In this document: positions 12,654-31,683 of the stretch, piece by piece | How the letters are laid out: each line of letters begins with the position of its first letter | Numbering within the stretch: position 1 is the stretch's first letter | DNA from: a virus | Lineage: Duplodnaviria; Heunggongvirae; Uroviricota; Caudoviricetes | IMG/VR virus record: IMGVR_UViG_3300031999_000001 | Span: 128,001-192,000 of that record | Reading direction: 5' to 3' (one strand) | DNA length: 64,000 nt | The notes under the pieces: model-generated | What the model was told of the DNA's origin: nothing | What the model saw: the letters and a program-made list of their open reading frames with translations, nothing else | Databases searched by the model: none | Program-made: the position numbers and the translations under genes

Positions 12654-12941
12654 TTAAAGTTCCTCAATCCTTTTACTTTTATCGTCAATCAATAAATCAT
12701 ATGCTGGTTTTTGTCTCATAATTACATCATGAAACTTACAACCCCAATCAATTAATTGTTGTGCGGTTAACTCTGTCCAATTTATGCCAGTATTTTGTCC
12801 TCTGGCTGACCAATAAATTATTATATTACCCTCATCGTAAAGTTTATTAATTTTTGCAATATTCTTTGGAATTGGCTTTGCATTATCGTAACCCCCAACA
12901 GTCGTACATATTGTACCGTCTATGTCACAGTATATCAACAT
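12654..12941 (-). CDS. Small HAD-superfamily phosphatase (capsule-biosynthesis phosphatase-like)
   Basis: DIDGT motif I, WSARG motif II, KP and IDDK motifs. Confidence 0.82.
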   Translation of the reverse strand: MLIYCDIDGTICTTVGGYDNAKPIPKNIAKINKLYDEGNIIIYWSARGQNTGINWTELTAQQLIDWGCKFHDVIMRQKPAYDLLIDDKSKRIEEL

Positions 12942-12953
12942 ATTCTAATTGTT

Positions 12954-13733
12954 TTACTTAATTTTTTTTAAATCAACAATAACCACACCTCTTTGAGTTA
13001 CCACCCAAGAAGCACATTTATTTGCAAATCGTATTGCTTCACAAATATCATTATTTTCCATGAATTTTGCAACAAGTGCTGCAAGAAAAGTATCACCAGC
13101 ACCACTTAAATCCCTGACATTATGTTCATTTTCAATTGAAAATTTTTCAATTTTAATTTCACCATCATCATTATAATTTAACATTGCACCATCTTTACCT
13201 AATGTTATAATAATATCATTTGGAAATTCATATGTTAAATATTCTTTATTTTCATTATATTCTTTTTCATTAATTTTTATATATTTGATATTAAATGCCC
13301 ATTTTCCAATTATTTTTTTTGTATCCATAAATATTAAAGGATGATTTTCTGCAATATATATAATATCATCATGACTTAAAAATCCTTTATTATAATCGGA
13401 AATTATAATTGCAACATATTGATTAAAATCAATTCCTTTCAATTCTTTTGCCCTTAATGGTTTAATTTTATCATTTTCGTCAACCCTAAGTAACATTTGG
13501 TTTGAAACTTCATCAACATATCTCATTTTTACTGGTCTGATATCATTTGTAAAAATATCACAATGAACACCTAATGCTTTGAGATTTTCATAAACATTTA
13601 TTGCCATTCCACCATTACCAGTTGTTCTTAAGGGAAGAAAAATTGGTACGGGTGCTTCGGGACTTAATTTATCACATATTCCATATCTGAACACATCCTC
13701 ACAACTATCGCCAATTACTAATACTTTTTTCAT
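12954..13733 (-). CDS. PfkB-family sugar kinase, RfaE/HldE kinase-domain-like (heptose-7-phosphate kinase)
   Basis: VLVIGD, SPEAPVP, ISDYNKG and DLSGAGDTFLA motifs. Confidence 0.85.
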   Translation of the reverse strand: MKKVLVIGDSCEDVFRYGICDKLSPEAPVPIFLPLRTTGNGGMAINVYENLKALGVHCDIFTNDIRPVKMRYVDEVSNQMLLRVDENDKIKPLRAKELKGIDFNQYVAIIISDYNKGFLSHDDIIYIAENHPLIFMDTKKIIGKWAFNIKYIKINEKEYNENKEYLTYEFPNDIIITLGKDGAMLNYNDDGEIKIEKFSIENEHNVRDLSGAGDTFLAALVAKFMENNDICEAIRFANKCASWVVTQRGVVIVDLKKIK

Positions 13734-15208
13734 TTCTTATTATATTTCTTTAATGCTATTAATTGTTTTTTAATGTTTGATATTTCATAATCGGTTTCAA
13801 GCATTTTATTTAATGGTTTTTCCATACTAAATTCATTGATTTTTACTGATTTTTTATATACTTTTCTTATTGTTCTTAATAAATCACATTTATGTAAACC
13901 TTTAACACCAATTTGTGTAATAACATCAGAATTATCCCAATTTAACATTATTTTTTCGGCAATTTTACACCAAAACAATGTTGTAATACCATTCCAATAA
14001 TAATTAACATAACCATTCACTTCTTCTTTTTCATCAACACTTAAAAACCAATCCAATAAAGATTTATTTGAATTTAATTCATGCCCAATTATTGATGTTC
14101 TAATGATTTTGGTGTTCTTAAAATTATCAACAATTATTTTAGATATCTTAGCTTTACTTTTACCATAATCATCATTAGCATCACGTTCATCGGTTTTTTT
14201 ATATTTTTCTGGATATGGAATGTCTCCAGAAAATTCACAATCTGTTGAAGGATGAAGAACTTTTTTTCCGATAGATTCTAAAAATATTGGTAAATCAACA
14301 TTAATTTTATCATAATCTTCTGATTTGTATTTTTTTTGCGGTATTGCACCAATACAATTTATAATAAAATCAACATTACAATTAATTATAAAATCTTTAA
14401 ATTCATTTGAATCCCATCTAAAATCACAGACATATACGATATATCTATTATTAAAATATTTATATACCATATTACCAAGCATTCCATTATGTCCCAATAT
14501 CAGTAATTTTATACCTTCTTTTAATTTAAGTAATTCACGTTTTATTTTTGACATGTTTCTTATAATTCCATTCAGATTTTTACTTGTTACTGAATCATTA
14601 TGTCTTCTTTTATAAGATAGAAATTCTGGTACGCCATCAAATGGTATGTTATAAATTGTTGATTTTATCATCCAATAATAATCTTCTGAAAATTTTAAAT
14701 GTTCAGGAAATGGAAAATTTTTATAAACATATTTCGGAATGAAAATACCCGTAAATCCAATTCGTGATTTACACCAAATCGTTTCCTCAAATTTTTCAGA
14801 ACTCATTTTTTTTGTTTCTCTCTTTTTTGTAATATTATTATCTTTATCAATTATCCATGCATTATTATATAAAACAGATTTTGGAAATTTTTGCGCATAT
14901 TCTATTTTTATTTTTAATAAATCTTTATCAAAATAATCATCTGCAGGACACCAACACCAATAATCTCCATTACTTTCATCAAAACTTTTATTTATGATAA
15001 CACCAACATTATCTTGTTTATCTAATTTAAAAATTTTAACCCTTTTATCATTTTCATATTCTTTAATTATATTTAATGAATCATCGGTGCTGCCATCATC
15101 ATAAATGAGATATTCAAAATCCGTATAACTTTGATTTAAAACACTTTCTATTGCTTGCGCAATATATGAAGCATTGTTGTAATTAGATGTAAAAACCGAT
15201 ATTTTCAT
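13730..15208 (-). CDS. Fusion of a GT2 glycosyltransferase and an RmlD-like NDP-4-keto-6-deoxysugar reductase
   Basis: N-half: YNNASYI, DDGSTD, ADDY, EDY. C-half: ILGHNGMLG, NCIG, STDCEFSG, YGKSK, RTSIIG. Confidence 0.85.
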   Translation of the reverse strand: MKISVFTSNYNNASYIAQAIESVLNQSYTDFEYLIYDDGSTDDSLNIIKEYENDKRVKIFKLDKQDNVGVIINKSFDESNGDYWCWCPADDYFDKDLLKIKIEYAQKFPKSVLYNNAWIIDKDNNITKKRETKKMSSEKFEETIWCKSRIGFTGIFIPKYVYKNFPFPEHLKFSEDYYWMIKSTIYNIPFDGVPEFLSYKRRHNDSVTSKNLNGIIRNMSKIKRELLKLKEGIKLLILGHNGMLGNMVYKYFNNRYIVYVCDFRWDSNEFKDFIINCNVDFIINCIGAIPQKKYKSEDYDKINVDLPIFLESIGKKVLHPSTDCEFSGDIPYPEKYKKTDERDANDDYGKSKAKISKIIVDNFKNTKIIRTSIIGHELNSNKSLLDWFLSVDEKEEVNGYVNYYWNGITTLFWCKIAEKIMLNWDNSDVITQIGVKGLHKCDLLRTIRKVYKKSVKINEFSMEKPLNKMLETDYEISNIKKQLIALKKYNKK

Positions 15209-15210
15209 AT

Positions 15211-15879
15211 TTATTTATTTATTAATTTTAAATTATATTTACTTACATTAAAATCAGACCTACTACCTAATAATTTGGTCATATGAATATTATCACCATG
15301 TATTGTCAAAAGCACATTTAAATTATCTATTTTTATTCCTTTAATGAAAATTCCAATACTACCATGTGATTTTGAATATGGTATACATTTATATTCATCT
15401 TTTTTTTCCATAACTGAAATAAAACCACTTGTACCTGTTGCATTCCATGTTTTTTTTCCTTTTGTTATTATATTAATCATATCCATTTTTTTTATATCAT
15501 AATAAAATGGAAATTCTGTTTCAATTATAGATTTATGAAGATTTTCAACAAAATCATTACCCAAACAATTATCACTATCAATTCTTGTTGTTAAAACATA
15601 TTCTTCATCAATAAGTTCCAGTAATTTCGGTAATATTTCTTTAAGAATTTTATTTGCTCCTGATGATTCAAGCAATAATTGATATTCATTACTAATTTTA
15701 CCCACAGGTTCATATCCCCATAAAGTAACGAACTTAAAATTTTTATTAGTTTGCACTTCAATTGATGACCTTAATGTATTATTTAAAATATTAATTCTAT
15801 TATTAAGCCAGACTTCATCTTTTGATTGTGGAAGCCATTTAATATTAACTCTACTAACAATTAAATGTGTAAATTTCAT
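15211..15879 (-). CDS. Putative rhamnosyltransferase-like GT-A protein
   Basis: SIEVQTNKNF, TTRIDSDN and IHGDN motifs. Confidence 0.6.
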   Translation of the reverse strand: MKFTHLIVSRVNIKWLPQSKDEVWLNNRINILNNTLRSSIEVQTNKNFKFVTLWGYEPVGKISNEYQLLLESSGANKILKEILPKLLELIDEEYVLTTRIDSDNCLGNDFVENLHKSIIETEFPFYYDIKKMDMINIITKGKKTWNATGTSGFISVMEKKDEYKCIPYSKSHGSIGIFIKGIKIDNLNVLLTIHGDNIHMTKLLGSRSDFNVSKYNLKLINK

Positions 15880-15882
15880 ATT

Positions 15883-16884
15883 TTACTTTATTAAAAAACC
15901 ACCCTCAAATAATAATTCACGTAAATAATTTTTATCCTTTATATTATCTGCCGATGAAAATGTTTTAAAATTTACTTTTTTATGATTATTTAAGTACGTA
16001 TATTCTTTATTTATTTTTATTGATGGTAATATAATATAATAATTTTCATAAAATTTATATGAATTCACTGATTCGTGTTCAGATATTAATATTTCATGTA
16101 CTTTCTCACCCTCTCTAATGCCAATCTCTTCAATTTTTGTATCTGAATTTCCATAATATTCAATCAACACCTTTGCTAAATCACTAATATAAAATGATGG
16201 CATATTCATTACAAAAGTTTCACCACCAATGCTATGTTCAGCAGCTTCAAATAATAAAAAAATTGCTTGAGATAATGTAAGAAAAAATCTGGTCATTGTC
16301 TTATCAGTAATTGTTACTTTATTTTGTGTTTTAATTTGATTAATAAAATGTGGAACAACACTACCATTTGAACCCAAAACATTACCACCCCTAATACAAA
16401 CAAAATCAGTATTATTTGTTAAATTATTTGCCTGAATTGTAAGTTTTTCACCAACCGATTTTGTCATTCCATATAAATTCGTTGGTGAAACCGCTTTATC
16501 TGTTGAAATATCAACAAACTTTTTAACTCCATACTTAATAGCAGAATTAATTAAATTTATTGTTCCAATAATATTAGTTTTTATTGCTTCTTGTGGTTGA
16601 TTTTCACAAACAGGAACATGTTTTAATGCTGCGAGATGAAAAACATAATTAATATTTTTATGATTAAATAATCTATCAACAGCATCCGCATCACGAACAT
16701 CACCAATAATATATTCAATTTTATTATTATTAAATTTTCTCAGCATGTTTACTTGTGCAAGTTCACCACGAGAATATATAATTATTTTTTTTGGGTCTTT
16801 CTCCAAAAGTTGTAATGTTAATTCATTTCCCCATGAACCCGAACCACCATCAATTAAAATTATTTTGTTTTCAAACATAATCAT
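15883..16884 (-). CDS. UDP-GlcNAc 4,6-dehydratase (FnlA/CapE-PseB family)
   Basis: GGSGSWG, GDVRD, HLAALKHVP, STDKAV, YGMTK, GNVLGSNGSV, MTRF and GIREGEK motifs. Confidence 0.9.
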   Translation of the reverse strand: MIMFENKIILIDGGSGSWGNELTLQLLEKDPKKIIIYSRGELAQVNMLRKFNNNKIEYIIGDVRDADAVDRLFNHKNINYVFHLAALKHVPVCENQPQEAIKTNIIGTINLINSAIKYGVKKFVDISTDKAVSPTNLYGMTKSVGEKLTIQANNLTNNTDFVCIRGGNVLGSNGSVVPHFINQIKTQNKVTITDKTMTRFFLTLSQAIFLLFEAAEHSIGGETFVMNMPSFYISDLAKVLIEYYGNSDTKIEEIGIREGEKVHEILISEHESVNSYKFYENYYIILPSIKINKEYTYLNNHKKVNFKTFSSADNIKDKNYLRELLFEGGFLIK

Positions 16885-17513
16885 TTATTAATTTTTATCA
16901 TTCTTATTATTTTAAATGACTCAGCATATTCCAAATTAGATGAAAAACCACGAATATTTGAATAACTCATTAATAGTTCTTTTGGTCTAAATTTTCTTAC
17001 TTGTGATTTATGTAATTTATATGCATTTATTTTATTTTCAATATCAATTTCTTCAAAATAATTTGGTTGAAATTCATTTTCACCCCAAAGTAAATATTGT
17101 TCAACCTCATAAACAAACACATTTGGTACAAAATAATTTAAATCATGTGGTCTTAATGCAACAATACAAGCATCATAAACTTCTTTATGATCTTGATTGT
17201 ATGAAAAATTTGGAATAAAAATTTCATTTGGTTTTAATTCATTAATAATATCAGTAATTTCATTAATTATCATTTCTTTTTTATAATTATTTACTTGATT
17301 AGTACCTATTCGATATTCAAAATTTAAAAATTTCGATACTGCATCAACTTCTTTAATTCTTTCATCTCTTCTCACAACATGAAATAAATCAATACCTAAA
17401 TAATAAACAAAAGAACAATTATTATTTTTTCTATTATTTAAAATTCCAGCACAACCCAATACTTCATCATCACAATGTGGTGATATTATTAATGTTTTAT
17501 ATGTCTTTTTCAT
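16881..17513 (-). CDS. PIG-L/LmbE-family N-deacetylase
   Basis: SPHCDDEVLG, NQDH, HKSQ and YAESF motifs. Confidence 0.87.
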   Translation of the reverse strand: MKKTYKTLIISPHCDDEVLGCAGILNNRKNNNCSFVYYLGIDLFHVVRRDERIKEVDAVSKFLNFEYRIGTNQVNNYKKEMIINEITDIINELKPNEIFIPNFSYNQDHKEVYDACIVALRPHDLNYFVPNVFVYEVEQYLLWGENEFQPNYFEEIDIENKINAYKLHKSQVRKFRPKELLMSYSNIRGFSSNLEYAESFKIIRMIKINK

Positions 17514-18162
17514 ATTCAATAATTTTTAATATAATTTTTCCAGTTTTACAATTAATATAACATTCTGGATATGGTTTTTGTAACGAACGTACTTTATTAT
17601 AAAAATATTCAGCATCGTTATTTAAAAAATCTTCTGGTTTTATTTCAGAATTATTTGGCTTTAAACGTTTGTATGTTGTAGCTTCTTCCTTATTTTGTTT
17701 TATCCATAATATTGAATCATTCTTATAATTTTCAATAAAATCTTTTGTTCCTATAATACCAAAATTTTCTATTTTTTTTAATATTATATCTAAATATCCG
17801 TTTAATTCAAAATCAACCTGATAATATATATCACCATCATCTAATCCCTTTTCCATTTTAAATATTGTAACTGCTGAAAATTTTTCCCCTGCAATTATTT
17901 GATTTTGTATTGGTGTTCCGCCTCTATATTTGGGTAATTTTGATGGATGTAAACATAAACAAATATAAGAATCAACAATTTTCTGAGACACCATCCAACT
18001 CCAACCATAAAAAAATATAACATCTGGATTTATTATATTAATAAAATCAATTGTACATAATTTTTTATTTGTAATAAGTATATATTCATCTTCCAATGAA
18101 GATATTTCCTTAAAAATATTAATTGCCCAATCTCTATATGCAAAAAATAAAAATCTTTTCAT
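17497..18162 (-). CDS. Formyltransferase (Fmt-like; probable sugar N-formyltransferase)
   Basis: LHPSKLPKYRGGTP and MEKGLDDGDI motifs. Confidence 0.87.
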   Translation of the reverse strand: MKRFLFFAYRDWAINIFKEISSLEDEYILITNKKLCTIDFINIINPDVIFFYGWSWMVSQKIVDSYICLCLHPSKLPKYRGGTPIQNQIIAGEKFSAVTIFKMEKGLDDGDIYYQVDFELNGYLDIILKKIENFGIIGTKDFIENYKNDSILWIKQNKEEATTYKRLKPNNSEIKPEDFLNNDAEYFYNKVRSLQKPYPECYINCKTGKIILKIIEYEKDI

Positions 18163-18920
18163 ATTTTTTTATGTTTTTCACCTTCCTGAAAATGATACAC
18201 AATAGAATCATTTGAATTTATATGTTTTACACCAATTGAATTTAGTCTAACAAAAAATTCAGTATCACCAGTTCTTGATATTATATTATATTTTCCATTA
18301 TGTAAATTTCCTTCTGGATAATATCCAACCTTTTCAATAATATCTTTATATAGCATTATTGGCATAAAAAGATTTCCAATTGAAATACTATCATTTTTTA
18401 TTTCATTTACTTTTTTTAGAAACGCTTCTTCGTTAAAATTTTTTATTGTTTGTCCAAAATCATAATGTTCACAAACAGATAAATTAATTGGATTGGTAAA
18501 TCTATGATGAGGCTGTATTATTTTTGAGGAAACCACAACTTCACGTGTTAATCTCTTTTTTAAATTAACTAACCAATCTGGTGAAAATGCATTATCGCTA
18601 TTAATCAACATTATTATTGGATTATTAGACATTCTAATACCATAATTATATCCAGCATATACTCTACTTATATATTCTGGATATGCAAATCCCATATTAA
18701 ATAATTCTTGTTCTGTACGCTTAATATTATTATTTATAAAATGTGGATAATTTTTTTCTTTTAGAAGTTTTAATACATCATCAGTTGCATCATTAGCAAC
18801 AAAATAAAATTCTGCTTCATCGCAATTAAGTTCAGGTGTGTGTTTTATGAGATTATTATATACAAACTCGGCATATTCAACAGATTGATATATTAATGAT
18901 ATGATTGATATTTTTTCCAT
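18159..18920 (-). CDS. GT2-like glycosyltransferase
   Basis: ISIISLIY, INSDN, WLVNL, VGYYPE and VYHFQ motifs. Confidence 0.7.
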   Translation of the reverse strand: MEKISIISLIYQSVEYAEFVYNNLIKHTPELNCDEAEFYFVANDATDDVLKLLKEKNYPHFINNNIKRTEQELFNMGFAYPEYISRVYAGYNYGIRMSNNPIIMLINSDNAFSPDWLVNLKKRLTREVVVSSKIIQPHHRFTNPINLSVCEHYDFGQTIKNFNEEAFLKKVNEIKNDSISIGNLFMPIMLYKDIIEKVGYYPEGNLHNGKYNIISRTGDTEFFVRLNSIGVKHINSNDSIVYHFQEGEKHKKI

Positions 18921-18924
18921 AATT

Positions 18925-19608
18925 TTATTTCTTTGGTATTAACATTATTGAACATCTTGGCACATAATGAACTTTAGTATTATATAAAATTTTATTATTA
19001 ATTTTATCATTTTTTTTCATTAATTGACATATATACATATCTGGTAGATCAGTCATATATTCAACATCATATTTATCAAGAATATTATTATAATAATATA
19101 ATTGTTCCGAATATGTTTTTTTATTAAAATCAAACCAGTCATGAATAAAAATACATTTACTATGATTAATTAAATTTAAAAAATTTTCATTTATGAATTT
19201 TGCCATTTTGGTAGAATGTTCACAATCAATCAAGAACATATCAAATTCGTTATTTTTAATAAACTTTTGAATTACATCATATTGTTCATAAAGATTAATT
19301 TTTTCATATTTTATATCATAAAATATTGGTTGTAATGCAAAACTTGTGCGTTTAATTCCTAAACTATCAATAAATTTACTTGAACTTCCAGCACCGAATT
19401 CAACAACATTTGTTATATTATTTTCAAATATAAACCTTTTTAATATAAATAAATCAAATGGATTTATGCCGAAATTTTGTCCGATTAATTTTACAATATC
19501 ATCTAATCTATATTCATCAATAAAATTAAAAATCTTATTGAAAATATTCTGATAATTATATTTATAATTATTTGAATTTGATATTATTATTCCCCATTCA
19601 TCTCCCAT
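18925..19608 (-). CDS. Class I SAM-dependent methyltransferase
   Basis: VVEFGAGSSS, FLIDCEH and FIHD motifs. Confidence 0.7.
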   Translation of the reverse strand: MGDEWGIIISNSNNYKYNYQNIFNKIFNFIDEYRLDDIVKLIGQNFGINPFDLFILKRFIFENNITNVVEFGAGSSSKFIDSLGIKRTSFALQPIFYDIKYEKINLYEQYDVIQKFIKNNEFDMFLIDCEHSTKMAKFINENFLNLINHSKCIFIHDWFDFNKKTYSEQLYYYNNILDKYDVEYMTDLPDMYICQLMKKNDKINNKILYNTKVHYVPRCSIMLIPKK

Positions 19609-19609
19609 T

Positions 19610-20443
19610 TTACATATTATTTATATAATTTTCCCATAAAATTTTGCCCGTATATCTGTCCCATTGTTTTTCGAAAATAACATCTCTTGGATTATCACCC
19701 GCTTCAAAATCTTTTTCAATATTTAAAATTTTTCTTTGTTTAAGATTACATGCCATTCCTTCATATTCAATAATATAATAGGGTCTTAAAAGACTGACAG
19801 ATAATTGAAAATCAGCACAATTCATCAATTCTACCATTTTTTGTTGATTTATTAATACGTGTTGTTGACCATATCCATTAAAATCACCCTTATTTGGATA
19901 CCAAACAATAATCCAATAAATGCTCGGATTCTCATTTGCATATTTTTGAACATGTTGAAATCCTTTCATTGGATGTGTTGTTCCACACCAAAAACCAATT
20001 TCTTTATTTAATGGAACACCATATTTTAATTTTAAATTATATTTTTCTTCATCTGAATACGATTTAAATAAATCAGTATTAACACAAATAGGTAATATAT
20101 CAACTTTACCATACGGTTCATAAAATGGTACTGCAAATTTTGATGATACAACTCTTCTGTTGGCTGCTTTTGCAGTTTGATATGTTACATTAATAACACC
20201 ATCCCAATGATTAACATTAAAAACTTCTTTCATTTCAGGATATAATTCCCAACATAAAGCAATTACATTTGCTGGCATTGCATTTAACGGTCCTGCAGTT
20301 GAATATCTTAAAACAGTATCATTTTCATTATATTGTAAAGGAAGTTTAAATGATGTGTTTTCAAAAACTTTTTCAAACCACACCCAAAATGTTTCTTCTC
20401 CATATGCACATTTTAATCCATGTATTGGTGATAAATATATCAT
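19610..20443 (-). CDS. GT-B (GT4-like) glycosyltransferase
   Basis: VNTDLF, HPMKG, LMNCAD and YEGMACN motifs. Confidence 0.7.
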   Translation of the reverse strand: MIYLSPIHGLKCAYGEETFWVWFEKVFENTSFKLPLQYNENDTVLRYSTAGPLNAMPANVIALCWELYPEMKEVFNVNHWDGVINVTYQTAKAANRRVVSSKFAVPFYEPYGKVDILPICVNTDLFKSYSDEEKYNLKLKYGVPLNKEIGFWCGTTHPMKGFQHVQKYANENPSIYWIIVWYPNKGDFNGYGQQHVLINQQKMVELMNCADFQLSVSLLRPYYIIEYEGMACNLKQRKILNIEKDFEAGDNPRDVIFEKQWDRYTGKILWENYINNM

Positions 20444-20979: not shown

Positions 20980-21018
20980 ATTTTTCCAATTAATATATTA
21001 ATTAAACAATAATTTTTA

Positions 21019-21879: not shown

Positions 21880-21880
21880 T

Positions 21881-23591: not shown

Positions 23592-24379
23592 TAAATAATA
23601 ATTTTATTTGGATTTGCTTTAATTATATTTTCTTTTGCTGTTGTTTCTGCATATAAATTATGATTAATATTTCTCAGTTTATTAGAATTTTTATTATTAT
23701 ATGAAAATTGTTCGTGTGTTTGATGAATTACCACAACACTATCAACAAACACAACATTCATTTTTTTTCTTCTTACTCTTTCTAAAAATTCAACATCATC
23801 CCTTTCAATACCATATGCATATCTTTCATCAAAACCATTTAATTCAATTAAATCTTCTTTTGTAATTGCGGTACAAAAATTTATTGCTGCAGGTCTAAAT
23901 ATTCTATGAGCATACCATTGACCATCATTATTATCATTAATATTAATTTTAATTAATTTATTGATTTCAAAAGAATAATTATTATTCCAATTAATTTTTT
24001 TTAGGACATTTACAACATTTTTATTTATTACTGAATACACCAAATATTTATTTTTTTCAATATTGTTAATAACGTGTTGAAAAACATCATCATAATGAAA
24101 ACATTCAGGATTTTGTAATATAAAAATATCACCAGAACAATAACCAAAAGCAATATTAAATGGAATACATGGATTTGTATGTTTTTTATTTTCTTTATCA
24201 ATTCGAATTGTTTTTAAAAACTTAAATTGTTTTTCCAAATCATCAATTCTATGTTCATCATCACTCCCATCATCAACAATAATTACCTCAAAATCTTTAT
24301 ATACACTCTTATTTATACTATGAAGCGTATTAATTAAATGTTGTTTTCGATTATAATATGCCATTGCTACTGATATCAT
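23591..24379 (-). CDS. GT2 glycosyltransferase
   Basis: YYNR, VDDGS, QNPEC, NGFDERY and DDVEF motifs. Confidence 0.82.
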   Translation of the reverse strand: MISVAMAYYNRKQHLINTLHSINKSVYKDFEVIIVDDGSDDEHRIDDLEKQFKFLKTIRIDKENKKHTNPCIPFNIAFGYCSGDIFILQNPECFHYDDVFQHVINNIEKNKYLVYSVINKNVVNVLKKINWNNNYSFEINKLIKININDNNDGQWYAHRIFRPAAINFCTAITKEDLIELNGFDERYAYGIERDDVEFLERVRRKKMNVVFVDSVVVIHQTHEQFSYNNKNSNKLRNINHNLYAETTAKENIIKANPNKIII

Positions 24380-24390
24380 TAAATATTTTT

Positions 24391-25266
24391 TTAGTTAAAA
24401 TAATTTTTACATAATTTACAAAAAAGATAATTATAATTTAAATAATTATTATGATTTAATAAATTATTAAATTTTTGCGCCACACCGCCACCAGCATACC
24501 AATGATATCCAATTGCATTTTCAGGAAAATCAGTAATATTTATTGCACAATTCTGATGAAAACAATCACCAATATTTTTATTATTATAATGATATACTAC
24601 ATCCATTGGTAAATTAAAAAATTTTAAATGTGGATATTTTTCAATTGCAAACGGTAAAATTTTTTGCCCATAACAACCATATGATTTATATAAATCATAT
24701 ACATTTAAAACACCATATGCTTGATATGCATAATGTTTTTCAAATTTAAATGTATTATAAAAAATATCTTTAAAAAAATCGTTTTCGGATGTAGATGCCA
24801 TTAAGCCAATTGATATATATTTGGTTTGACAAATAACAACATTAATATTTTCTTTATTCCATTGATTATATAATTCATCTATTGGTTTAAAAAATAAAAT
24901 ATCCATATCTGAATATATTCCCCCATTTTTATACAACTGATACCATTTAAATAAATTACTTTTTCCAGATGGTGTAATGTTTTTAAATCTATTAAGTTCA
25001 ACTTCTTCAGTATTCCATTTTATTATATTAATATTTAATTCTTTTATTTTTGAAAAATAATCTAAACCTTCATAAAACCAAAAATCCTGTCTACGTCCTG
25101 CTTTAATAAAATCAGGAGTTAATTCAGGAGTTAAAACAGTTTTTTCATTACAATATAAATCCATTTGCCAATCTGGATTCATTTTTCTAAATGAAAATAA
25201 GGTCATATATCTCATCCAAGACAATTTATCATTTTCCCAATAAAAAAATATTCGTTTGGGTATCAT
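24391..25266 (-). CDS. GT32 glycosyltransferase (paralog of 21019-21879)
   Basis: IPKRIFFYW, GGIYSDMD and GYHWYAG motifs. Confidence 0.82.
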   Translation of the reverse strand: MIPKRIFFYWENDKLSWMRYMTLFSFRKMNPDWQMDLYCNEKTVLTPELTPDFIKAGRRQDFWFYEGLDYFSKIKELNINIIKWNTEEVELNRFKNITPSGKSNLFKWYQLYKNGGIYSDMDILFFKPIDELYNQWNKENINVVICQTKYISIGLMASTSENDFFKDIFYNTFKFEKHYAYQAYGVLNVYDLYKSYGCYGQKILPFAIEKYPHLKFFNLPMDVVYHYNNKNIGDCFHQNCAINITDFPENAIGYHWYAGGGVAQKFNNLLNHNNYLNYNYLFCKLCKNYFN

Positions 25267-25841
25267 AGTTTATTTATTTTTCTTGCTAAATACCAATTCC
25301 ATTTTTTATTTATTTTCATAATTTCAAAACCAACATTTTCTAAAAGCAATAATGATGTTTTTGTTAATTCAATCCAATCAGGATTTTTTCTATCATGAAA
25401 ACTAATTGTTATTTGATCAATATTTTTAAAATCTTTTATATCCAAACTATGTAATAACGGATATTCAGCACCCTCAATATTAATTTTTAATATTGAAATC
25501 TGATTAATATTATATAATTTACAAAAATTTTTCCAAGAAAGTACAGGAAATTCGATACCGTCTTTATTATTAAGAAAAACCGATGAAGAAAATCCAATAT
25601 CTTTTATAAGTGTTTTACCATCAAATGCACCAATCAATCCCTTAAATAATTCAACACCAATAATTTCATTTTCAAATGGGTCAACACCAATAATTCTTTT
25701 TTTTCCAATAAAAAAAGAAGACCAATCCCAATTTAAGCATCCAATATCAATAACACATCCATTGTGTTCAAAAACTCTTGAATCAATTGTTGAATAATCA
25801 CGTCCCTTTATGGTTTGAATTAAAGTGTTTTTATTTTCCAT
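25263..25841 (-). CDS. FkbM-family methyltransferase
   Basis: VIDIGC, LKINIEGAE and ISFH motifs. Confidence 0.8.
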   Translation of the reverse strand: MENKNTLIQTIKGRDYSTIDSRVFEHNGCVIDIGCLNWDWSSFFIGKKRIIGVDPFENEIIGVELFKGLIGAFDGKTLIKDIGFSSSVFLNNKDGIEFPVLSWKNFCKLYNINQISILKINIEGAEYPLLHSLDIKDFKNIDQITISFHDRKNPDWIELTKTSLLLLENVGFEIMKINKKWNWYLARKINKL

Positions 25842-25859
25842 TATTTATAAAATAATTTT

Positions 25860-26444
25860 TTATATAGTTTTTATTTTTTTTAGAATTAACAAAACGCCCT
25901 TCCATCCATTATCTATATTAAATTCTTTATTAATTAAGAAATATTTTAAAATAGCTTCTTTTATTGGAATAATATTTTCGGTATCAAACACTTCATATTT
26001 TCCTGCACGCTGTATTGCTAATTCCAGAAAAAAAACACCATTGGGTTTTAATATTCGATTAGTCTCTTTTAAAAAAACATCTAAGTACAATACATGATCA
26101 ATGGCATTGCAAAAAGCAAAATCAAATATATAATCAGGAAATTTTAATTGATGGAAATCACCATATAAAACATGTTCATTTTTTTCCCCCGGTTCAATAT
26201 CAATACCAATGGCAAGTGCATTTAATTTTTTAAATGCACGAACCTCCCCACCCAATCTGGCAGCAAGACAAATTATACTTTTTTCTTTAAAATCAAACAA
26301 ATTTTTATATCTATCTAACACAATTTGTTCATAACGTTTATCATTTCTTATAATTTCCTTCAAATGAGTATGTAATTTATCTGATTGATGTTCTATATAA
26401 CTCTCATAATTTAAATATTCTCTCTTTTTTATATTGTCTGTCAT
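25860..26444 (-). CDS. SAM methyltransferase (type 11-like)
   Basis: CLAARLGGEV, GIDI, GDFH and RILKPNG motifs. Confidence 0.8.
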   Translation of the reverse strand: MTDNIKKREYLNYESYIEHQSDKLHTHLKEIIRNDKRYEQIVLDRYKNLFDFKEKSIICLAARLGGEVRAFKKLNALAIGIDIEPGEKNEHVLYGDFHQLKFPDYIFDFAFCNAIDHVLYLDVFLKETNRILKPNGVFFLELAIQRAGKYEVFDTENIIPIKEAILKYFLINKEFNIDNGWKGVLLILKKIKTI

Positions 26445-26483
26445 TAATATTATTTTAAAACACCTTTTATTTTATAATTTTAA

Positions 26484-27038
26484 CTAAAATTTAAAAACAT
26501 ATATTATTCGTCTGCGATTTGTATGATTAACTAAAAGAATTTTTTTTGGCATTATATTGTTAGTCCACTTTCTTATTATTTCATCATCAATATTATGATG
26601 ATTCAAATCATTTGGTGAATTCCATTTATATGGAAACGATAAAATTGCATTTTTACTTATTCTCATAATTTCATTAAAGACTTTACTTTGTTTTTTATTT
26701 TCAAAATGTTCAAATACCTGCAATGCCACAAAAACATCATAATATTTATCAGATATGTTCCAAGGTAAAGATGTAGCATCTTGAATATAATTTTTATTTT
26801 TTAAATTTTTGGTGTCAATATATTCTAATTGTAAATCCATATTATCACTAATATTTGTTAAATTAATTTTATATGCTCCAAGTTCAAGAATTGTTTGGGG
26901 ATTAAGTTTTCTAATTTCGTTAATTACAGGATACATATATTTCCATCGACCCGACCATGAATTATTCCAATAATCATCATTTAATAGATTCATTTTATTT
27001 ATTAACGATGTTCTACATAAATATTTAATATTCAACAT
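26484..27038 (-). CDS. SAM methyltransferase
   Basis: ILELGA, DATSLPW and YDVFVALQVFEH motifs. Confidence 0.75.
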   Translation of the reverse strand: MLNIKYLCRTSLINKMNLLNDDYWNNSWSGRWKYMYPVINEIRKLNPQTILELGAYKINLTNISDNMDLQLEYIDTKNLKNKNYIQDATSLPWNISDKYYDVFVALQVFEHFENKKQSKVFNEIMRISKNAILSFPYKWNSPNDLNHHNIDDEIIRKWTNNIMPKKILLVNHTNRRRIIYVFKF

Positions 27039-27952
27039 ATGTATTTACTATTTTATTTATTTTAATGCTTTGATTATTACCAATTAATTTCTTATATTCT
27101 TTTCTTATTTCAGAATTTGCCCCAAATAAAATATTTTGAGTTAAACTATCTTGATGCATTCGTCTGTAAAATAATGGTTTGTTTATTAATTTTTCCTTTA
27201 TTATAGATAAACCCCTTTTTAATAATTCGGTGTCTGCAGCACACATCCAAGATTCATATCCACCCAATTTATTATATAATGATAATTTAAATAATCCAAC
27301 ACCATGTGGATATCTGATAAAATTTATGTTTTTTTGAATAACATTTTTAATTAGTATTAAATATTTAAATCTAATAATATTATAATTATCAACAAAATAC
27401 ATTATTTCATTAATCATTTCTGGTTTCATAATATCATCACCATCAAAACGAATAATATTCTCATTTTTTATAATATCCAATAACGTGTTTGATGTAATAT
27501 ATGTGCCCATGTTATTATCCATCATAAATATCCTAAGATTTCTATATTTATGTTTGATTTCAAGCAATTTATTTAATGTGTCCTGACAAGCATCGACACC
27601 CACCAATACCTCAAAATTATTATTATTAATAAAATATGTCTGATTTTCAATTGAATTTAAAGTTTCTTCAATATACTTTTGTGTTTGATATGCTGATATT
27701 ATTATTGATATTGGTTTTTTATTTTCTAAAATTGGAAGACATCCGTTGTCCATAATACCTAATCTTCGTTCATTACGACCAAACAAATTAAGATTAATTT
27801 GTTTTTTATTCTCATCACCATGAATTCTTAACTTATCTCTTTCATTCATTAATTTAATTATTTTATTTTTTTTTTTCAATAAAAACAAGTTGCCGATGTC
27901 TTAATTCGATTCTTTTTTTTACTTCATTAATGCTTATTTTTTGTTTTTTCAT
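27025..27952 (-). CDS. GT2 glycosyltransferase; ATG at 27952 is out of frame across an A11 tract (main frame 27025-27888)
   Basis: ISIIISAY, RFDGDD, GGY, ADTE and YRRMH motifs; see finding on the homopolymer. Confidence 0.75.
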
Positions 27953-27960
27953 TCTAAAAA

Positions 27961-28668
27961 TCAATATTTCATAACATTATAATTAATGTTTTGTCGTGAA
28001 CTAAAATATTTGGGGTATTTTTTTAATTGTAAATTCAAATTTAATTCAGGAAATGCATCAATATGCACAACACGATAATTTTCAATTTTTTTTAATAAAT
28101 ATCCATTTTCTCTTATTCTTTTATTTAATTCAAAATCCCAAAAAATTTTTGTATTGGGTTCGGTAATCCAGAAATTAATTTTATCAACAATGCTTCTTCT
28201 ATGCATATTTACACAAGTTGCTTTATCAACATCACCAAAAACAATTCCATTATATTCTTGTTTATTACGAATTTCCAATACATTCCAAACACCATTCCTT
28301 TTTAACATTAATTGACCAATTTGTGGAAAATTATCCATTATTTCAACCATTTTTTTTAAAAAATGCGGTGTTATTGGTGGACAATCATTATCCCATTGCA
28401 TTGTATATTCACAATCTTCATCGAGATTTTCATAACCGAGCTTAGTACCACCAAAATCACCAAGATTTTCATTAGAATATATTGGTTTGATTTTATAATA
28501 GCTTTCTTTTACTAAAGATTTTATCCATTGTCCAGTACCATCTGTTGATGCTTGATCAATTACCATCATTTTATAATTATCATATCCAGCCAAACGATCA
28601 ATTTCACGAATTGTTAATGTTGTATATTCAAGACGATTAAATGCCCTAATTATTATATTAACTTTCAT
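27961..28668 (-). CDS. GT2 glycosyltransferase
   Basis: IIIRAFNR, IDQASTDGT, NLG and WDND motifs. Confidence 0.8.
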   Translation of the reverse strand: MKVNIIIRAFNRLEYTTLTIREIDRLAGYDNYKMMVIDQASTDGTGQWIKSLVKESYYKIKPIYSNENLGDFGGTKLGYENLDEDCEYTMQWDNDCPPITPHFLKKMVEIMDNFPQIGQLMLKRNGVWNVLEIRNKQEYNGIVFGDVDKATCVNMHRRSIVDKINFWITEPNTKIFWDFELNKRIRENGYLLKKIENYRVVHIDAFPELNLNLQLKKYPKYFSSRQNINYNVMKY

Positions 28669-28680
28669 TTTCTTTTTATA

Positions 28681-29367
28681 TTAAAAATTATTCACCAAAC
28701 CTTGATTATAATCAACATATCCACCACCAACATCACTATATCCTGCTTTTGGTTTCACTAATGTTGGTAAAAAAACATATGCTTTATATATATTATGACT
28801 TTGTAATAATGGCTGTAATATATCTGCTGGCTCTTTCCATATTTTTAATCTTTCTAAAAAATCAACAAAAATATTACTATTATAACCCAAAGCATATGCA
28901 CATTGTGTCCATTTGGTTTTAATTAATTCATAATCAAAAGTATTGTAATTTTGTTTTGTTATTTTAATTGTTTTGTCTCCCGTTATCATTTCAAAACTAC
29001 CCCAATCAAATTGGTTATTTCCACCCAAATACAATAAATTCCAATTATCGGGTAAATATTCAATTTTTTTCCAAAATCTTTCATTTATATTATCATTTAA
29101 ATGAACATCATCCTCAAAAATCAATATACTTTTATATTTTTTTAATATTGCATCTTCGAAAATTTTAATATTTGTTAATAAATTACCATATGCACCAGCA
29201 TGTCGATTTAAACCGGGTTGAAAAATATCTTTTCCGTTAATTGCTTCAAATCTTTCAACCGTTAAAAAATGTTTTAGAAATTCTTTGCTCATTTCTTCCC
29301 ATCTATCAGTTCTGTGTGTTAGATTCAAACAATAAATATGATCAAAAAAATTATTAAGTGTTTTCAT
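28681..29367 (-). CDS. GT25 glycosyltransferase
   Basis: CLNL..RTDR, RFEAING, LIFEDD and LLYLG motifs. Confidence 0.82.
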   Translation of the reverse strand: MKTLNNFFDHIYCLNLTHRTDRWEEMSKEFLKHFLTVERFEAINGKDIFQPGLNRHAGAYGNLLTNIKIFEDAILKKYKSILIFEDDVHLNDNINERFWKKIEYLPDNWNLLYLGGNNQFDWGSFEMITGDKTIKITKQNYNTFDYELIKTKWTQCAYALGYNSNIFVDFLERLKIWKEPADILQPLLQSHNIYKAYVFLPTLVKPKAGYSDVGGGYVDYNQGLVNNF

Positions 29368-29379
29368 ATTTATATATAG

Positions 29380-30018
29380 CTACAAATTATGTTTTTTTCT
29401 AATTGCCATTATTGCATCTATTTCACTGTTTGTATTAGAAGTGATGCCTTCGTCTATATAATATGCAAAAAACTCATTATTTTGCACCGCAACTCCCTTA
29501 TCACCATTTTTTAGCATAGTTAGCCAAAGGTCATAATCTTGAAGCCGTTTTAAATTTTCATCAAATCTTGGAAATTTTTCTCTGCGAATTAATGACATTG
29601 TTGAAATATAATTTGTTACTTTTAGTCTTTCGACATTAAATGGTATTGTTGGTATTATAAAATTTTGTTTCAGTGGATGATTAACACTATCAACAACAAT
29701 TCCAATATACCCGCTATAAGCATATGCTGCATTTAAATTTTTATTTAATGCATCCAATAATTTTTCAAGATAATTTTTTGGTAAAAGTATATCATTATCA
29801 CAAAAAAATACAAATTGTTGTGTTGATCTATCAAAACCATTATTTCTTTTTTTTGGTGCACCACCTAAATCATCATTAATAATTATTTCAATTGGCTGAT
29901 TTGCCTCAATTAAAGGAAATACATAATTTTCAAAAAAATCTTTTCTCAACTTATCTCTTGTTGTTGGAATTATTACAGATATTGGTAATCCATCATTATA
30001 TTTTATAATATCAATCAT
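29380..30018 (-). CDS. GT2 glycosyltransferase
   Basis: ISVIIPT, FCDND and FDENLKRLQDYDLWL motifs. Confidence 0.82.
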   Translation of the reverse strand: MIDIIKYNDGLPISVIIPTTRDKLRKDFFENYVFPLIEANQPIEIIINDDLGGAPKKRNNGFDRSTQQFVFFCDNDILLPKNYLEKLLDALNKNLNAAYAYSGYIGIVVDSVNHPLKQNFIIPTIPFNVERLKVTNYISTMSLIRREKFPRFDENLKRLQDYDLWLTMLKNGDKGVAVQNNEFFAYYIDEGITSNTNSEIDAIMAIRKKHNL

Positions 30019-30559
30019 TTTTCCACATTTTATTTCTAATTATTCTTGAAATGCTTATTTCAGACACACCATATTTTCTCGCAAGAAATTGATAACCATC
30101 TTTTTTCAATATGTTGTTAAATTTAAACATACGAATTTCTTGTACTTGAATATTATTTAATTTAGCATTTATATTATTTTCACCACACATATTTAGACCA
30201 TTTAAATGCCCCTCGACTTTTCTGGCAAGATTATAAATTTTATTGCTGAAATATTTAAAATAATAATCCAAATATTGTTGTTCAACATCATGTAATTGAT
30301 TTTTATCAAAAATTTGAACAATTATTGAAAACATAAAATTCTGCGAACCATATTTATTCCAAGCATGCTGTAAATAAATATTATAATGCTTATTATTATT
30401 TAATAAATGTATATGATGACTCCAACGATTTTTATAATCATAAGCACTGCCAATATAAAACTTACCATCTACCAAATTTAATATTTGATATATTGAACGT
30501 GGACTTGCTTCAAAATAATCAGGAAAATCATTTTTTATTCTAATTGCATTAGATTTCAT
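30011..30559 (-). mobile_element. Free-standing GIY-YIG homing endonuclease with C-terminal HTH
   Basis: SIYQILN...FYIGSA...RW..H, LQHAWNKYG; C-terminal GENNINAKL...LARKYGVS. Confidence 0.85.
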
Positions 30560-31254
30560 TCTTCATACGTAATTGGCAATTCATCTTTATATTTTTCAAC
30601 AAATTGTTGTCTGTTTTTTTCCCATTCTTCATTTGTTGCACCCACAGATTCATGTAGTATTCTTATATCTGTTATAACACCAATATTACAACCCTCAAGG
30701 TAATTATTAAAAACCATCGGAATTTCATAAAAATGAAACCCTTTAAATTCTTCATCAAACTTATGCTCAATATTATTACAATCAACAGCCATAAATAATC
30801 CATCAATTAATATTACTGGTTTAATATATCCTTTTCTTGGTGGTGCATATTCACTTACCCATGTTGAAATGCCATTGGTGTGCTCTACGACTCCATACAT
30901 TTTAGTTCTGTCAGTCCACCAGCAACCATTATCGGCAAGATATGTTGTACCAGCTACGCCAATTATTGAAAAATTCGAATAATTGAATTTATTAAGCAAT
31001 ATTTTACCCCAATTAGATGTTTTTATGGTTATGTCTGGATGAGAAAACACCATAATTACATTATCTCCGTTATGTTCAGCAATTGCTCTATTATAAACTT
31101 CAGAAAGTGAATATTGGTTATAATTAACATAACACACAACATCATAATTTACGCCAATTGTTTTATGAATATGATTAATAAATTCATTATTTTTTTCATC
31201 ACCTAAATGTGAAGAAAATACAACAACTATTTTATTTTTTAAATTTTTTTTCAT
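30556..31254 (-). CDS. Glycosyltransferase (Glyco_tranf_2_5-like)
   Basis: SLSEVYN, FSHPDI, IIGVAG, IDGLFM, FDE and FHFYE motifs. Confidence 0.8.
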   Translation of the reverse strand: MKKNLKNKIVVVFSSHLGDEKNNEFINHIHKTIGVNYDVVCYVNYNQYSLSEVYNRAIAEHNGDNVIMVFSHPDITIKTSNWGKILLNKFNYSNFSIIGVAGTTYLADNGCWWTDRTKMYGVVEHTNGISTWVSEYAPPRKGYIKPVILIDGLFMAVDCNNIEHKFDEEFKGFHFYEIPMVFNNYLEGCNIGVITDIRILHESVGATNEEWEKNRQQFVEKYKDELPITYEE

Positions 31255-31424: not shown

Positions 31425-31429
31425 TTTAA

Positions 31430-31588: not shown

Positions 31589-31683
31589 TATTTTGTAATT
31601 ACTTCAACAACAATAATAAAAACAACAATAATAACAATTGTTAAACCAATAACAAACCAATCCCAAAAATCATCCTTTTTCAT
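31588..31683 (-). CDS. 31-aa single-TM peptide (not in ORF track)
   Basis: MKKDDFWDWFVIGLTIVIIVVFIIVVEVITK; its stop overlaps the next start. Confidence 0.5.
   Translation of the reverse strand: MKKDDFWDWFVIGLTIVIIVVFIIVVEVITK

Follow-up and report, generated by a model that had tools for sequence, protein, structure and literature searches.

What does a phage do with an 18.6-kb island of sugar genes, and which molecule receives the glycan that these genes would build? The island lies at positions 12654–31254 of a 64,000-nucleotide stretch of phage DNA (the window), in an uncultured sediment jumbo phage of roughly 330–360 kb whose sequence comes from metagenomes alone. The contig under study, G000, is estimated to be 61% complete. 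The window carries phage markers (tail sheath, T4-type baseplate hub, DnaB and a UvsX-like recombinase), and the carrier is a T4-like jumbo phage, probably with a Bacteroidota host in sediment.

The ORF listing gives exactly 25 island genes, all on the minus strand like every feature described below, separated by −23 to +72 nt and mostly by 12 nt or less, in line with the roughly 25 tightly packed, co-oriented genes of the original prediction. Island GC content (0.23–0.26) is slightly under that of the flanks (0.27–0.30), as might be seen if a bacterial polysaccharide locus had been mis-joined to a phage contig. We consider the probability of such an artefact negligible: three unitigs from the probable source run cover 12320–32319 with zero mismatches at a depth of 23.1–24.5 and span both junctions, identical DNA pieces are present in two further sediment samples, and about 19 related, independent contigs have the same flanks and first gene. 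Strand, GC skew and packing likewise show no break between island and flanks. The mis-joined bacterial contig is thus rejected, and the even depth across both junctions, the coverage check proposed earlier, indicates a genuine phage assembly.

Comparison of island content among related phages, also proposed earlier, revealed a fixed position, a conserved first gene (GT2_5) and variable contents. The relatives' islands measure 9.6–11.2 kb (complete relatives have genomes of 328–363 kb), and the 72 proteins of these islands include GT2 (18), GT2_5 (7), TylF/FkbM/MT24, DegT, GDP-Man dehydratase and GNAT members. More distant relatives have a giant structural gene in the same slot, so the closeness of island and baseplate reflects a rearrangement breakpoint rather than an old functional linkage.

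Pfam and NCBIfam searches identified 12 glycosyltransferases: 10 GT-A enzymes, one marginal GT2 and one GT4-like enzyme. The first island gene, GT2_5 (30556–31254; PF13712, 1.5e-24), is a candidate priming enzyme conserved across the clade, with orthologues of 53–75% identity at the same position in every close relative, more than 120 metagenomic homologues, and Atlas clusters that contain viruses only. Its AF2 model (pLDDT 93) has a GT-A fold closest to majastridin (2qgi), and this predicted fold gives no pointer to the acceptor. Pfam also assigns GT2 enzymes at 29380–30018, 27961–28668 and 27025–27888, the first two shared with relatives G001, G004 and L006 at 60–77% identity, and a GT25 (28681–29367) whose homologues among GenBank phages all belong to huge uncultured ones. 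A GT32 (24391–25266) and a GT2 plus GT7C protein (23591–24379) have homologues in L002 at 41–43% identity; with a second GT32 at 21019–21879, the GT32/DXD enzymes show a weak TcdA_TcdB match. The GT4-like GT-B enzyme (19610–20443) has no Pfam match, and a profile of 43 homologues matches GT4/GT-B enzymes (6kih at 2.4e-16, MshA, BshA and WaaG), as does its AF2 model (pLDDT 96). The marginal GT2 (18159–18920) scores 23.2 bits against a 23.3-bit cut-off. Pfam and NCBIfam place a rhamnosyltransferase-like (Rhamno_transf-like) enzyme at 15211–15879 and, at 13730–15208, an N-terminal GT2 fused to an RmlD-like 4-reductase in the C-terminal half. Among the genomes compared, this fusion occurs here only; in other genomes, homologues of the reductase are joined to Polysacc_synt_2, Epimerase_2 or GT25.

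The island also encodes five or six SAM methyltransferases, namely two MT11 (26484–27038 and 25860–26444), an FkbM (25263–25841), an MT24 (20440–20979), a weak Pfam match to MT24 (18925–19608) and a predicted MT24/CmcI-like protein (21881–22534) recognized by Atlas structure only. A WecB-like non-hydrolysing UDP-HexNAc 2-epimerase (22524–23591; Epimerase_2, 1.8e-91) scores 268 bits against the TIGR00236 cut-off of 210, above the wecB cut-off. The PseB/FlaA1-like inverting UDP-GlcNAc 4,6-dehydratase (15883–16884; Polysacc_synt_2, 2.5e-98) reaches 313 bits with the PseB model and 241 bits with the FnlA model, each under its own cut-off; in alignment it keeps YxxxK and has Y where CapE and FnlA carry M. 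Genes for a formyltransferase (17497–18162) and a PIG-L de-N-acetylase (16881–17519) overlap by 23 nt. A PfkB sugar kinase (HldA/rfaE-domain-I-like; 12954–13733) and a 95-aa capless, phosphatase-like mini-HAD (12654–12941; motifs DxDGT...S...K...DD) form a conserved distal end, their orthologues closing the island in G001, G002, G004 and L002. These assignments bear out the predicted inventory of about 12 glycosyltransferases (GT2-like, two GT32 and GT25, here with one GT2 marginal), a GT4-like protein, about six methyltransferases, nucleotide-sugar enzymes, a deacetylase, a formyltransferase, a sugar kinase and a phosphatase.

Upstream, a candidate host-type (Bacteroidota sigma-A-like) promoter, CCTTGACA-N19-TAGGTTTG (31826..31901), lies 43 nt before the first of four small leader ORFs (51, 31, 52 and 54 aa, the second with one TM segment; 31260..31825) that separate it from GT2_5. 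As these ORFs are tightly packed, we infer that they belong to the island operon and form one transcription unit with the 25 genes. The genome has five CCTTG-N-TAnnTTTG sites, each with a gene starting 17–51 nt downstream on the same strand; apart from the island site, they stand before a Mre11/Rad50 fusion, a SNF2 helicase and two genes without assigned function. By its motif, the putative island promoter (CCTTG-N19-TAnnTTTG) is of a class common to replication, recombination and helicase genes. Structural genes are preceded by a late motif, GTATTTAT, a class that does not precede the island. With a putative promoter of its own, the island stands outside the late structural operon.

We found no TM segment in the 25 island proteins, whose highest 19-residue Kyte-Doolittle value is 1.56 against a threshold of 1.6, nor in the islands of six relatives. 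Wzx, Wzy_C, ABC2_membrane, Bac_transf and Glycos_transf_4 were not found in G000 or in three 100%-complete relatives (G001, G002 and G003), nor were PGT and WecA/MraY families, whereas positive controls matched in 10–14 reference genomes. Absence from three complete genomes covers the missing 39% of G000. Multi-TM proteins outside the island in G000 and G001 matched no Pfam family. The predicted lack of an exporter, initiating transferase and multi-TM enzyme therefore holds within the island and, by the flippase search beyond it, for the contig and its three complete relatives. What does not follow is the step from no phage membrane component to a cytoplasmic acceptor. Elongating transferases of bacterial O-antigen and capsule pathways are likewise soluble or peripheral, and the phage might borrow the undecaprenyl-phosphate carrier, the primer transferase and the flippase of its host.

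Phage virion proteins offered another line of evidence. The motif [ST]G.[ST], defined post hoc on G000, occurs 254 times in the genome, where shuffling within proteins predicts about 80. Sheath and fiber-like proteins hold the surplus, which is absent from the island enzymes (3 observed, 2.8 expected) and from T4 fibers. Uncorrected for kinship, all 10 genomes with at least three GT2 genes have motif-enriched sheaths, versus one of four with at most one. Over the whole genome, observed/expected is 3.2 and 2.6 for GT-rich genomes and 1.3 and 1.8 for GT-poor ones, which may be one clade. In G011, which carries a single GT2_5, no enrichment was seen. Enrichment of Φ-[S/T]-G-x-[S/T] in sheath and fiber proteins thus appears to track GT-rich genomes, which we treat as a lead only.

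Judged by its genes, the island is best explained as a self-contained cytoplasmic glycan factory. The PseB-like dehydratase would convert UDP-GlcNAc to a 4-keto-6-deoxy-L-hexosamine, the RmlD-like domain would reduce the 4-keto product, and the WecB-like enzyme would then epimerise at C2, giving UDP-2-acetamido-2,6-dideoxy-L-hexoses of the L-RhaNAc/L-QuiNAc type; the fused GT2 probably transfers the resulting sugar. Coupled deacetylase and formyltransferase could swap N-acetyl for N-formyl, and the kinase and mini-HAD may provide a sugar phosphate, kinase first and phosphatase second, as in heptose activation. GT2_5 would prime a conserved acceptor, the remaining 11 transferases would lengthen the heteroglycan, and the methyltransferases would O-methylate it.

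The original prediction named virion protein as the likeliest acceptor. We retain this as a best guess, with a probability of about 0.45, from analogy with Megavirinae and the motif correlation. Exposed parts of sheath and fiber-like proteins would be the acceptors, perhaps at Φ-[S/T]-G-x-[S/T] sites, and the product would most likely be a coat on tail proteins that varies from strain to strain as Megavirinae fibrils do. Fibril clusters of Megavirinae (Mimivirus, Megavirus, Moumouvirus and Tupanvirus) hold 6–33 clade-specific genes between conserved flanking genes, and Mg534–536 make L-RhaNAc and L-QuiNAc (PMC10117803). Like the island, they combine rare bacterial-type amino-sugar pathways, many soluble transferases and sugar methyltransferases. 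They differ in having eukaryotic hosts and chemically demonstrated virion glycans, while the island is known from genes alone, its phage infects a bacterium with its own lipid-linked glycan machinery, and we detected no orthology past common enzyme families. Virion glycosylation is favored by the complete soluble toolkit, the missing TM segments and membrane families, the multi-TM proteins outside any Pfam family, the Megavirinae-like pattern of fixed position and variable content, the virus-only GT2_5 clusters, and the motif excess with its enriched sheaths. Against it count the soluble elongating transferases equally typical of Und-PP-linked pathways, the replication/recombination rather than structural-gene promoter class, the breakpoint origin of baseplate proximity, the post hoc motif and possible single GT-poor clade, unenriched G011, and the uninformative GT2_5 fold. 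In addition, mycobacteriophages need few transferases for the purpose: in the account of Freeman et al. 2023 within PMC12619734, phage-encoded transferases glycosylate capsid and tail-tube proteins in the cytoplasm, drawing on host nucleotide sugars, in contrast to the island's 12 transferases, own sugar synthesis, formylation and methylation.

Instead, a WecA/WbaP-type enzyme of the host might do the priming, and the phage enzymes might work at the inner membrane face on undecaprenyl-phosphate-linked host intermediates, with a host flippase/ligase or ABC transporter exporting an altered O-antigen, capsule or protein-O-glycan. The changed cell surface could, for example, exclude other phages or stop progeny re-adsorption. 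We rate this as unlikely but second to virion glycosylation. GT2, GT25 ('LPS'), GT32 ('capsule'), WecB, PseB-like and FkbM are surface-polysaccharide-locus families, hypervariable content between conserved flanks is as much a hallmark of O-antigen loci, and early action would fit a host-type, non-late promoter. Yet the priming PGT, Wzx, Wzy/ligase, Wzm and GtrA/GtrC of O-antigen/capsule loci (Wzx/Wzy, ABC) and phage Gtr cassettes were looked for and are absent here; initiating transferase, flippase, polymerase, ligase and ABC-2 permease were found in 0 of 4 genomes, three of them complete. Host flippase and ligase would have to accept a glycan from about 12 foreign transferases, the most conserved enzyme sits in virus-only clusters, and the motif correlation would go unexplained. 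Host-surface modification has been proposed in print, and is the usual guess, for the 'LPS'/cell-wall clusters (22–24 sugar genes, up to 13 transferases) of cyanophages P-SSM2 (24 genes), S-SCSM1 and S-SCSM2R (22 genes, 13 GTs) (PMC1079782; PMC12801897). These are also T4-like myoviruses with large sugar-gene sets, but of another lineage and probable host, with weak similarity (dehydratase 30% identity over 46% of length); S-SCSM2R has an annotated exporter-like PgaA. The island has no exporter, and its genes form a single compact operon in a hypervariable locus of fixed position.

A different cytoplasmic product, such as an oligosaccharide, free or anchored to lipid, or sugars on a small molecule or on a non-virion protein (host targets or packaged internal proteins), seems improbable. 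Protein-glycosylating toxins are distant relatives of the GT32/DXD enzymes, MshA/BshA-type enzymes use small molecules, and sequence fixes no acceptor; however, the island has no PKS, NRPS or lipid-enzyme scaffold genes, and its transferase number and dedicated nucleotide-sugar synthesis suggest a polymer or long oligosaccharide. Phage DNA, the other acceptor originally proposed, is very improbable. Sugars on a modified base could block restriction enzymes and CRISPR, phage clusters, some adjoining structural genes, add mono- to trisaccharides (hexose, HexNAc, heptose) to 5hmC (bioRxiv 10.1101/2023.12.21.572611), and the island has a heptose-kinase-like PfkB gene. But C5 cytosine methylase was not found in G000–G003 nor TET/JBP dioxygenase in G000–G002 (sub-threshold matches only in G003), the relatives' ThyA-family protein passes the thymidylate-synthase equivalog model, and the island methyltransferases are of small-molecule/sugar types. 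To our knowledge, no DNA glycan needs anywhere near 12 transferases and six methyltransferases.

Among described phages, moraphages are likewise metagenomic, T4-related and jumbo; they come from aquatic samples, have predicted Bacteroidota hosts, four transferase orthogroups in their core genome and variable genomic islands that were noted and left unanalysed (PMC12619734). Their genomes reach at most 307 kb, below the island phage's complete relatives. One island gene stands apart from glycan synthesis: a GIY-YIG homing endonuclease (30011–30559; Pfam 5.5e-06), missing from the gene list of the original prediction, is a selfish insert with no glycan role and has a 71%-identical orthologue at the same place in G001.

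The 18.6-kb island at 12654–31254 comprises exactly 25 minus-strand open reading frames, overlapping or at most 72 nt apart. Pfam and NCBIfam searches identified ten clear GT-A glycosyltransferases (five GT2, the first island gene GT2_5 at 30556–31254, one GT25, two GT32 and one rhamnosyltransferase-like enzyme) and one further, marginal GT2 (18159–18920). A compact 277-aa enzyme (19610–20443) is GT-B/GT4-like: the profile of its 43 homologues, found by exhaustive search, matches sucrose-phosphate synthase, MshA, BshA and WaaG, and its AF2 model (pLDDT 96) fits the same folds. Among the methyltransferases, four are unambiguous (MT24, FkbM and two MT11) and one is weak, while a structure search of the Atlas revealed that a 217-aa protein (21881–22534), which carries a glycine-rich SAM motif, resembles MT24/CmcI sugar O-methyltransferases. 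Single-sequence PDB searches with GT2_5, the 217-aa protein and the marginal GT2 returned no match. Profile matches further identified a PseB/FlaA1-like dehydratase, a GT2 with an RmlD-like reductase domain fused at its C-terminal end, a PIG-L deacetylase and a formyltransferase in overlapping genes, a PfkB kinase closest to heptose-7-phosphate kinase and a GIY-YIG homing endonuclease, together with a WecB-like epimerase above its equivalog cut-off and a 95-aa protein in which inspection revealed four HAD motifs. The gene tally of the original prediction was correct, except that the homing endonuclease had been missed. Outside the island, another probable GT2 (42051–42863, plus strand) lies in a divergent block by the baseplate hub. 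Its score here is 22 bits, and its orthologue from the relative G001 reaches 28.5 bits, above the cut-off; the gene is also kept in a second relative, G003.

The source is a linear IMG/VR viral contig of 200,057 bp with 28% GC, estimated by CheckV to be 61% complete; the window covers its positions 128001–192000. It encodes a 908-aa tail sheath and a T4-type baseplate hub, as well as a DnaB-like helicase, a UvsX-like recombinase and an exonuclease. Its nearest deposited relatives, cyanophage sheaths and huge uncultured phages, are distant at 31–37% identity, and GenBank phages contain neither a DNA match to the island nor a protein match to the 1107-aa baseplate protein, GT2_5 or the GT4-like enzyme, placing the phage in an uncultured lineage. 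Three unitigs of the probable source run cover 12320–32319 with no mismatches at a depth of 23.1–24.5 and extend across both island borders. Identical island pieces occur at lower but even depth in two other sediment samples, and the order of the flanking genes recurs on about 19 contigs of other metagenomes. Together these observations rule out a mis-joined bacterial contig, the scenario that could have undone the original prediction. A freshwater sediment run (X4) yielded only a divergent relative, and we therefore draw no habitat claim from it.

The enzyme complement points to particular sugars. By alignment, the dehydratase keeps the SDR tyrosine as FlaA1 and PseB do, whereas CapE and FnlA carry methionine at this position (MxxxK); it also scores higher with the PseB model than with the FnlA model (241 bits on FnlA, cut-off 730). 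The sequence therefore identifies it as something other than a Cap/Fnl orthologue, and the Met-type dehydratase of the UDP-L-FucNAc pathway (CapE/F/G = FnlA/B/C) was not found. Nor does the island contain an aminotransferase or a NeuB-type synthase. The families present are those of an inverting 4,6-dehydratase, an RmlD-like 4-reductase and a non-hydrolysing 2-epimerase, which together would likely produce 2-acetamido-2,6-dideoxy-L-hexoses; the WbvB/R/D enzymes and Megavirus Mg534–536 make sugars of this proposed L-RhaNAc/L-QuiNAc type. Homologues of the reductase are elsewhere fused to Polysacc_synt_2, Epimerase_2 or GT25, supporting a pathway shared with the dehydratase and epimerase, although the epimerase could simply make UDP-ManNAc. 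The GT2–reductase fusion was found in this genome only, a pattern scan of IMG/VR having returned no relative of it. Because the only amine available to the formyltransferase is the one freed by the deacetylase, the pair suggests an exchange of N-acetyl for N-formyl groups. On rfaE_dom_I the PfkB kinase reaches 119 bits (cut-off 345), and the mini-HAD protein has the catalytic motifs, a combination reminiscent of ADP-heptose-type activation (HldA plus GmhB); no GmhA isomerase or nucleotidyltransferase was seen within the island.

None of the island proteins reaches the transmembrane threshold (highest hydrophobicity value 1.56), and in the islands of six relatives no protein clearly does so, with two values marginal. 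Since the source contig is incomplete, we extended the search to three relatives with a completeness rating of 100%, G001 (363 kb), G002 (328 kb) and G003 (349 kb), with reference genomes serving as positive controls. Initiating polyprenyl-phosphate transferases (PF02397, Bac_transf; PF00953, Glycos_transf_4) had no match in the source genome or these three relatives, while the same models matched 10 of 14 and 13 of 14 reference genomes, respectively. The Wzx flippase (PF01943, Polysacc_synt) was absent from all six genomes searched for it, and the ABC-2 permease Wzm (PF01061, ABC2_membrane), expected of an ABC-transporter-dependent polysaccharide locus, was absent from the source genome and the three complete relatives. 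The few multi-transmembrane proteins encoded outside the island in the source genome and G001 matched no Pfam family. These results bear out the original prediction that the island encodes no membrane or export parts, and extend it to complete genomes. The sole Wzy_C (PF04932) match, in a 475-aa protein of G002 orthologous to G000:C1:14318–15727 on the source contig, was judged spurious, as it scored 14 bits and the protein has just three transmembrane segments and a large soluble body. This protein of about 470 aa is itself conserved (also at L105:1926–3353) and matches no family; its soluble body is Cys-rich and lies between two N-terminal transmembrane segments and one at the C terminus. 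Near the island, the sole membrane-like element is a 31-aa ORF (31588–31683, minus strand) with one strongly hydrophobic segment, one of the four small leader ORFs that precede the island.

Comparison among related phages, as the original prediction had proposed, revealed a fixed position, a constant GT2_5 and otherwise changing content. In close relatives, defined by a 1107-aa protein at 45–60% identity, the order runs from the hub through the 830-aa, 1107-aa and 104-aa proteins to the island, which always opens with GT2_5 (53–75% identity) and closes, after a variable portion, with the PfkB and 95-aa genes, followed by a conserved run to the recombinase and helicase. Two more GT2 genes and the GIY-YIG gene are common to some relatives and the remainder varies by genome; the islands span 9.6–11.2 kb in relatives versus 18.6 kb here. 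A further relative, the 41-kb contig P0002, is 89% identical. Their 72 proteins include GT2 and GT2_5 transferases, MT24/FkbM/TylF methyltransferases, DegT aminotransferases, a GDP-mannose dehydratase, acetyltransferases, epimerases and homing endonucleases. The last are of three kinds, GIY-YIG, LAGLIDADG and HNH, scattered among the islands (L110, L111, L106, L109, L009 and L002), which suggests that they help island content to turn over. In distant relatives (about 30% identity) the slot instead holds one giant gene of 1880–2376 codons (L041:12904–18603, L043:13163–19276, L046:12651–19292 and others), whose orthologue in the close clade lies about 40 kb away (G001:C1:175540–180936). The island thus occupies a rearrangement breakpoint beside the baseplate block, not an ancient site within it. 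Distant relatives often carry transferase clusters at other genome sites.

A possible acceptor emerged from the phage's own proteins. The motif [S/T]-G-x-[S/T], in most cases following Y, L, V or I, has 254 occurrences genome-wide against about 80 expected from within-protein shuffles, an approximately threefold excess in a motif picked post hoc, after looking at this genome itself. The excess sits in the sheath (10 versus 2.2), in the products of 56193–57029 and 5647–7116, and in fibre-like proteins, encoded as a block upstream of the window, which reach 19–40 copies apiece and some of which also have T4-fibre-like H-x-H motifs; motif-rich regions comprise G000:C1:97225–121124 and 59093–66130 and, in the window, 49271–51997 in addition to the two just named. 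Baseplate proteins, island enzymes (3 versus 2.8) and T4 gp34, gp35 and gp37 show no excess. Across 14 related genomes, the sheath motif is enriched (z 2.4–7.5) in all ten with at least three GT2 genes and in one of the four with at most one, a genome 59% complete (Fisher p ~0.01, uncorrected, with GT-poor genomes that may form one clade). Genome-wide ratios are 3.2 here and 2.6 in G001, versus 1.3 in G011 (complete, no GT2) and 1.8 in G012 (complete, one GT2), although the motif-poor G011 nonetheless encodes a lone GT2_5. We regard this sequence association as a lead that raises the virion-protein reading somewhat. GT2_5 itself is a GT-A enzyme whose nearest structure is majastridin; its likeness to polypeptide GalNAc-transferases is a generic GT-A feature, and we discarded the fold as an acceptor clue.

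Remodelling of the host surface by the island glycan is a serious rival to this reading. The island draws on the enzyme families of O-antigen and capsule loci, where elongating transferases are soluble too, and host-surface modification is the standing hypothesis for cyanophage clusters (PMC1079782; PMC12801897). Set beside this, the initiating transferase, flippase and polymerase/ligase of a Wzx/Wzy-dependent locus were not found in the genomes searched, and no island protein reaches the transmembrane threshold, as the membrane proteins GtrA, GtrB and GtrC of a phage seroconversion cassette would be expected to. Phage DNA, the other acceptor that the original prediction had offered, lacks the prerequisites for sugar hypermodification. 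MT/5mYOX-dependent hypermodification takes a C5 methylase with a TET/JBP dioxygenase, or a dCMP/dUMP hydroxymethylase; the C5 cytosine methyltransferase family (PF00145) has no match in the source genome or the three complete relatives, the TET/JBP family (PF12851) has none in the source genome, G001 or G002, and the relatives' ThyA-family protein, with a TIGR03284 score of 257 bits (cut-off 108), is an ordinary thymidylate synthase. Known DNA glycans reach trisaccharides at most (bioRxiv 10.1101/2023.12.21.572611). What the island does share with giant-virus glycosylation clusters is a virus-encoded nucleotide-sugar pathway with many soluble transferases and sugar-modifying enzymes in one clade-variable cluster. 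We tentatively propose, at a probability of roughly 30%, a phage counterpart of giant-virus glycosylation: an autonomous, membrane-independent, cytoplasmic system that would build a long methylated, N-formylated heteroglycan on Φ-[S/T]-G-x-[S/T] sequons of sheath and fibre proteins, its fixed hypervariable locus giving each strain its own virion coat.

Reports of large sugar-gene clusters in big phages go back to 2005, and we know of no one who has shown their glycosylation target. Transferase clusters of unexplained function are documented in P-SSM2 (PMC1079782) and S-SCSM2R (PMC12801897), and a 2025 paper on aquatic jumbo 'moraphages' described four core transferase orthogroups and left the variable islands unstudied (PMC12619734). 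Several features are new: a hypervariable locus that is fixed in position and whose first gene encodes a conserved, virus-only transferase; the absence of membrane machinery from complete genomes; the deacetylase/formyltransferase pair and the reductase–transferase fusion; and, as a lead, the association between motif and transferases. This clade is an unusually clean case, combining complete genomes, a dozen transferases and full sugar-tailoring chemistry with no export or lipid-priming machinery, at one locus with gene content that changes from one close relative to the next. Were the virion the target, tailed phages could be placed alongside giant viruses as makers of complex glycan coats specific to each strain, with consequences for adsorption, stability, grazing and recognition by immune systems, and they would offer a source of soluble glyco-enzymes; were it the host envelope, the island would amount to a lytic phage's equivalent of seroconversion, far larger in scale. 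For either target, the conserved GT2_5 and the candidate sequon are concrete experimental handles.

Transcription signals set the island apart from the structural genes. Roughly 40 genes, among them all structural genes that can be recognised, carry the motif (A/T)GTATTTAT(A/T)AAAA 15–25 nt upstream (36 observed versus 2.7 expected). It occurs across the whole contig (for example at 35570–35577, 38490–38497 and 39665–39672) and nowhere within the island, and probably serves as this lineage's late promoter. The canonical T4 late promoter TATAAATA showed no enrichment before genes (13 of 96 sites). A rarer class, CCTTG-N19-TAnnTTTG, resembles Bacteroidota sigma-A promoters, and all five copies (31826–31901 and 5579–5611 in the window; G000:C1 51964–51996, 57178–57210 and 94882–94913) lie 17–51 nt upstream of a gene. 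One, at 31826–31901, precedes four small ORFs and the island; the other four precede a Mre11/Rad50 fusion, an intein-containing SNF2 helicase and two genes of no assigned function. This promoter class, together with start codons that lack Shine-Dalgarno sequences, points to a Bacteroidota host, and from these signals we infer that the island forms its own operon, transcribed by the host polymerase and not by the late machinery. Such timing fits every acceptor hypothesis. Scans of the island for sigma-70 promoters and terminators were at or below shuffle expectation. The SNF2-family helicase (G000:C1:92037–94862) is a 941-aa protein split by a Hint/LAGLIDADG intein. The fusion (G000:C1:48618–51947) combines, in one 1109-aa polypeptide, an Mre11-like phosphoesterase and a Rad50-like ATPase that has a zinc hook; in T4 the two are separate proteins, gp47 and gp46.
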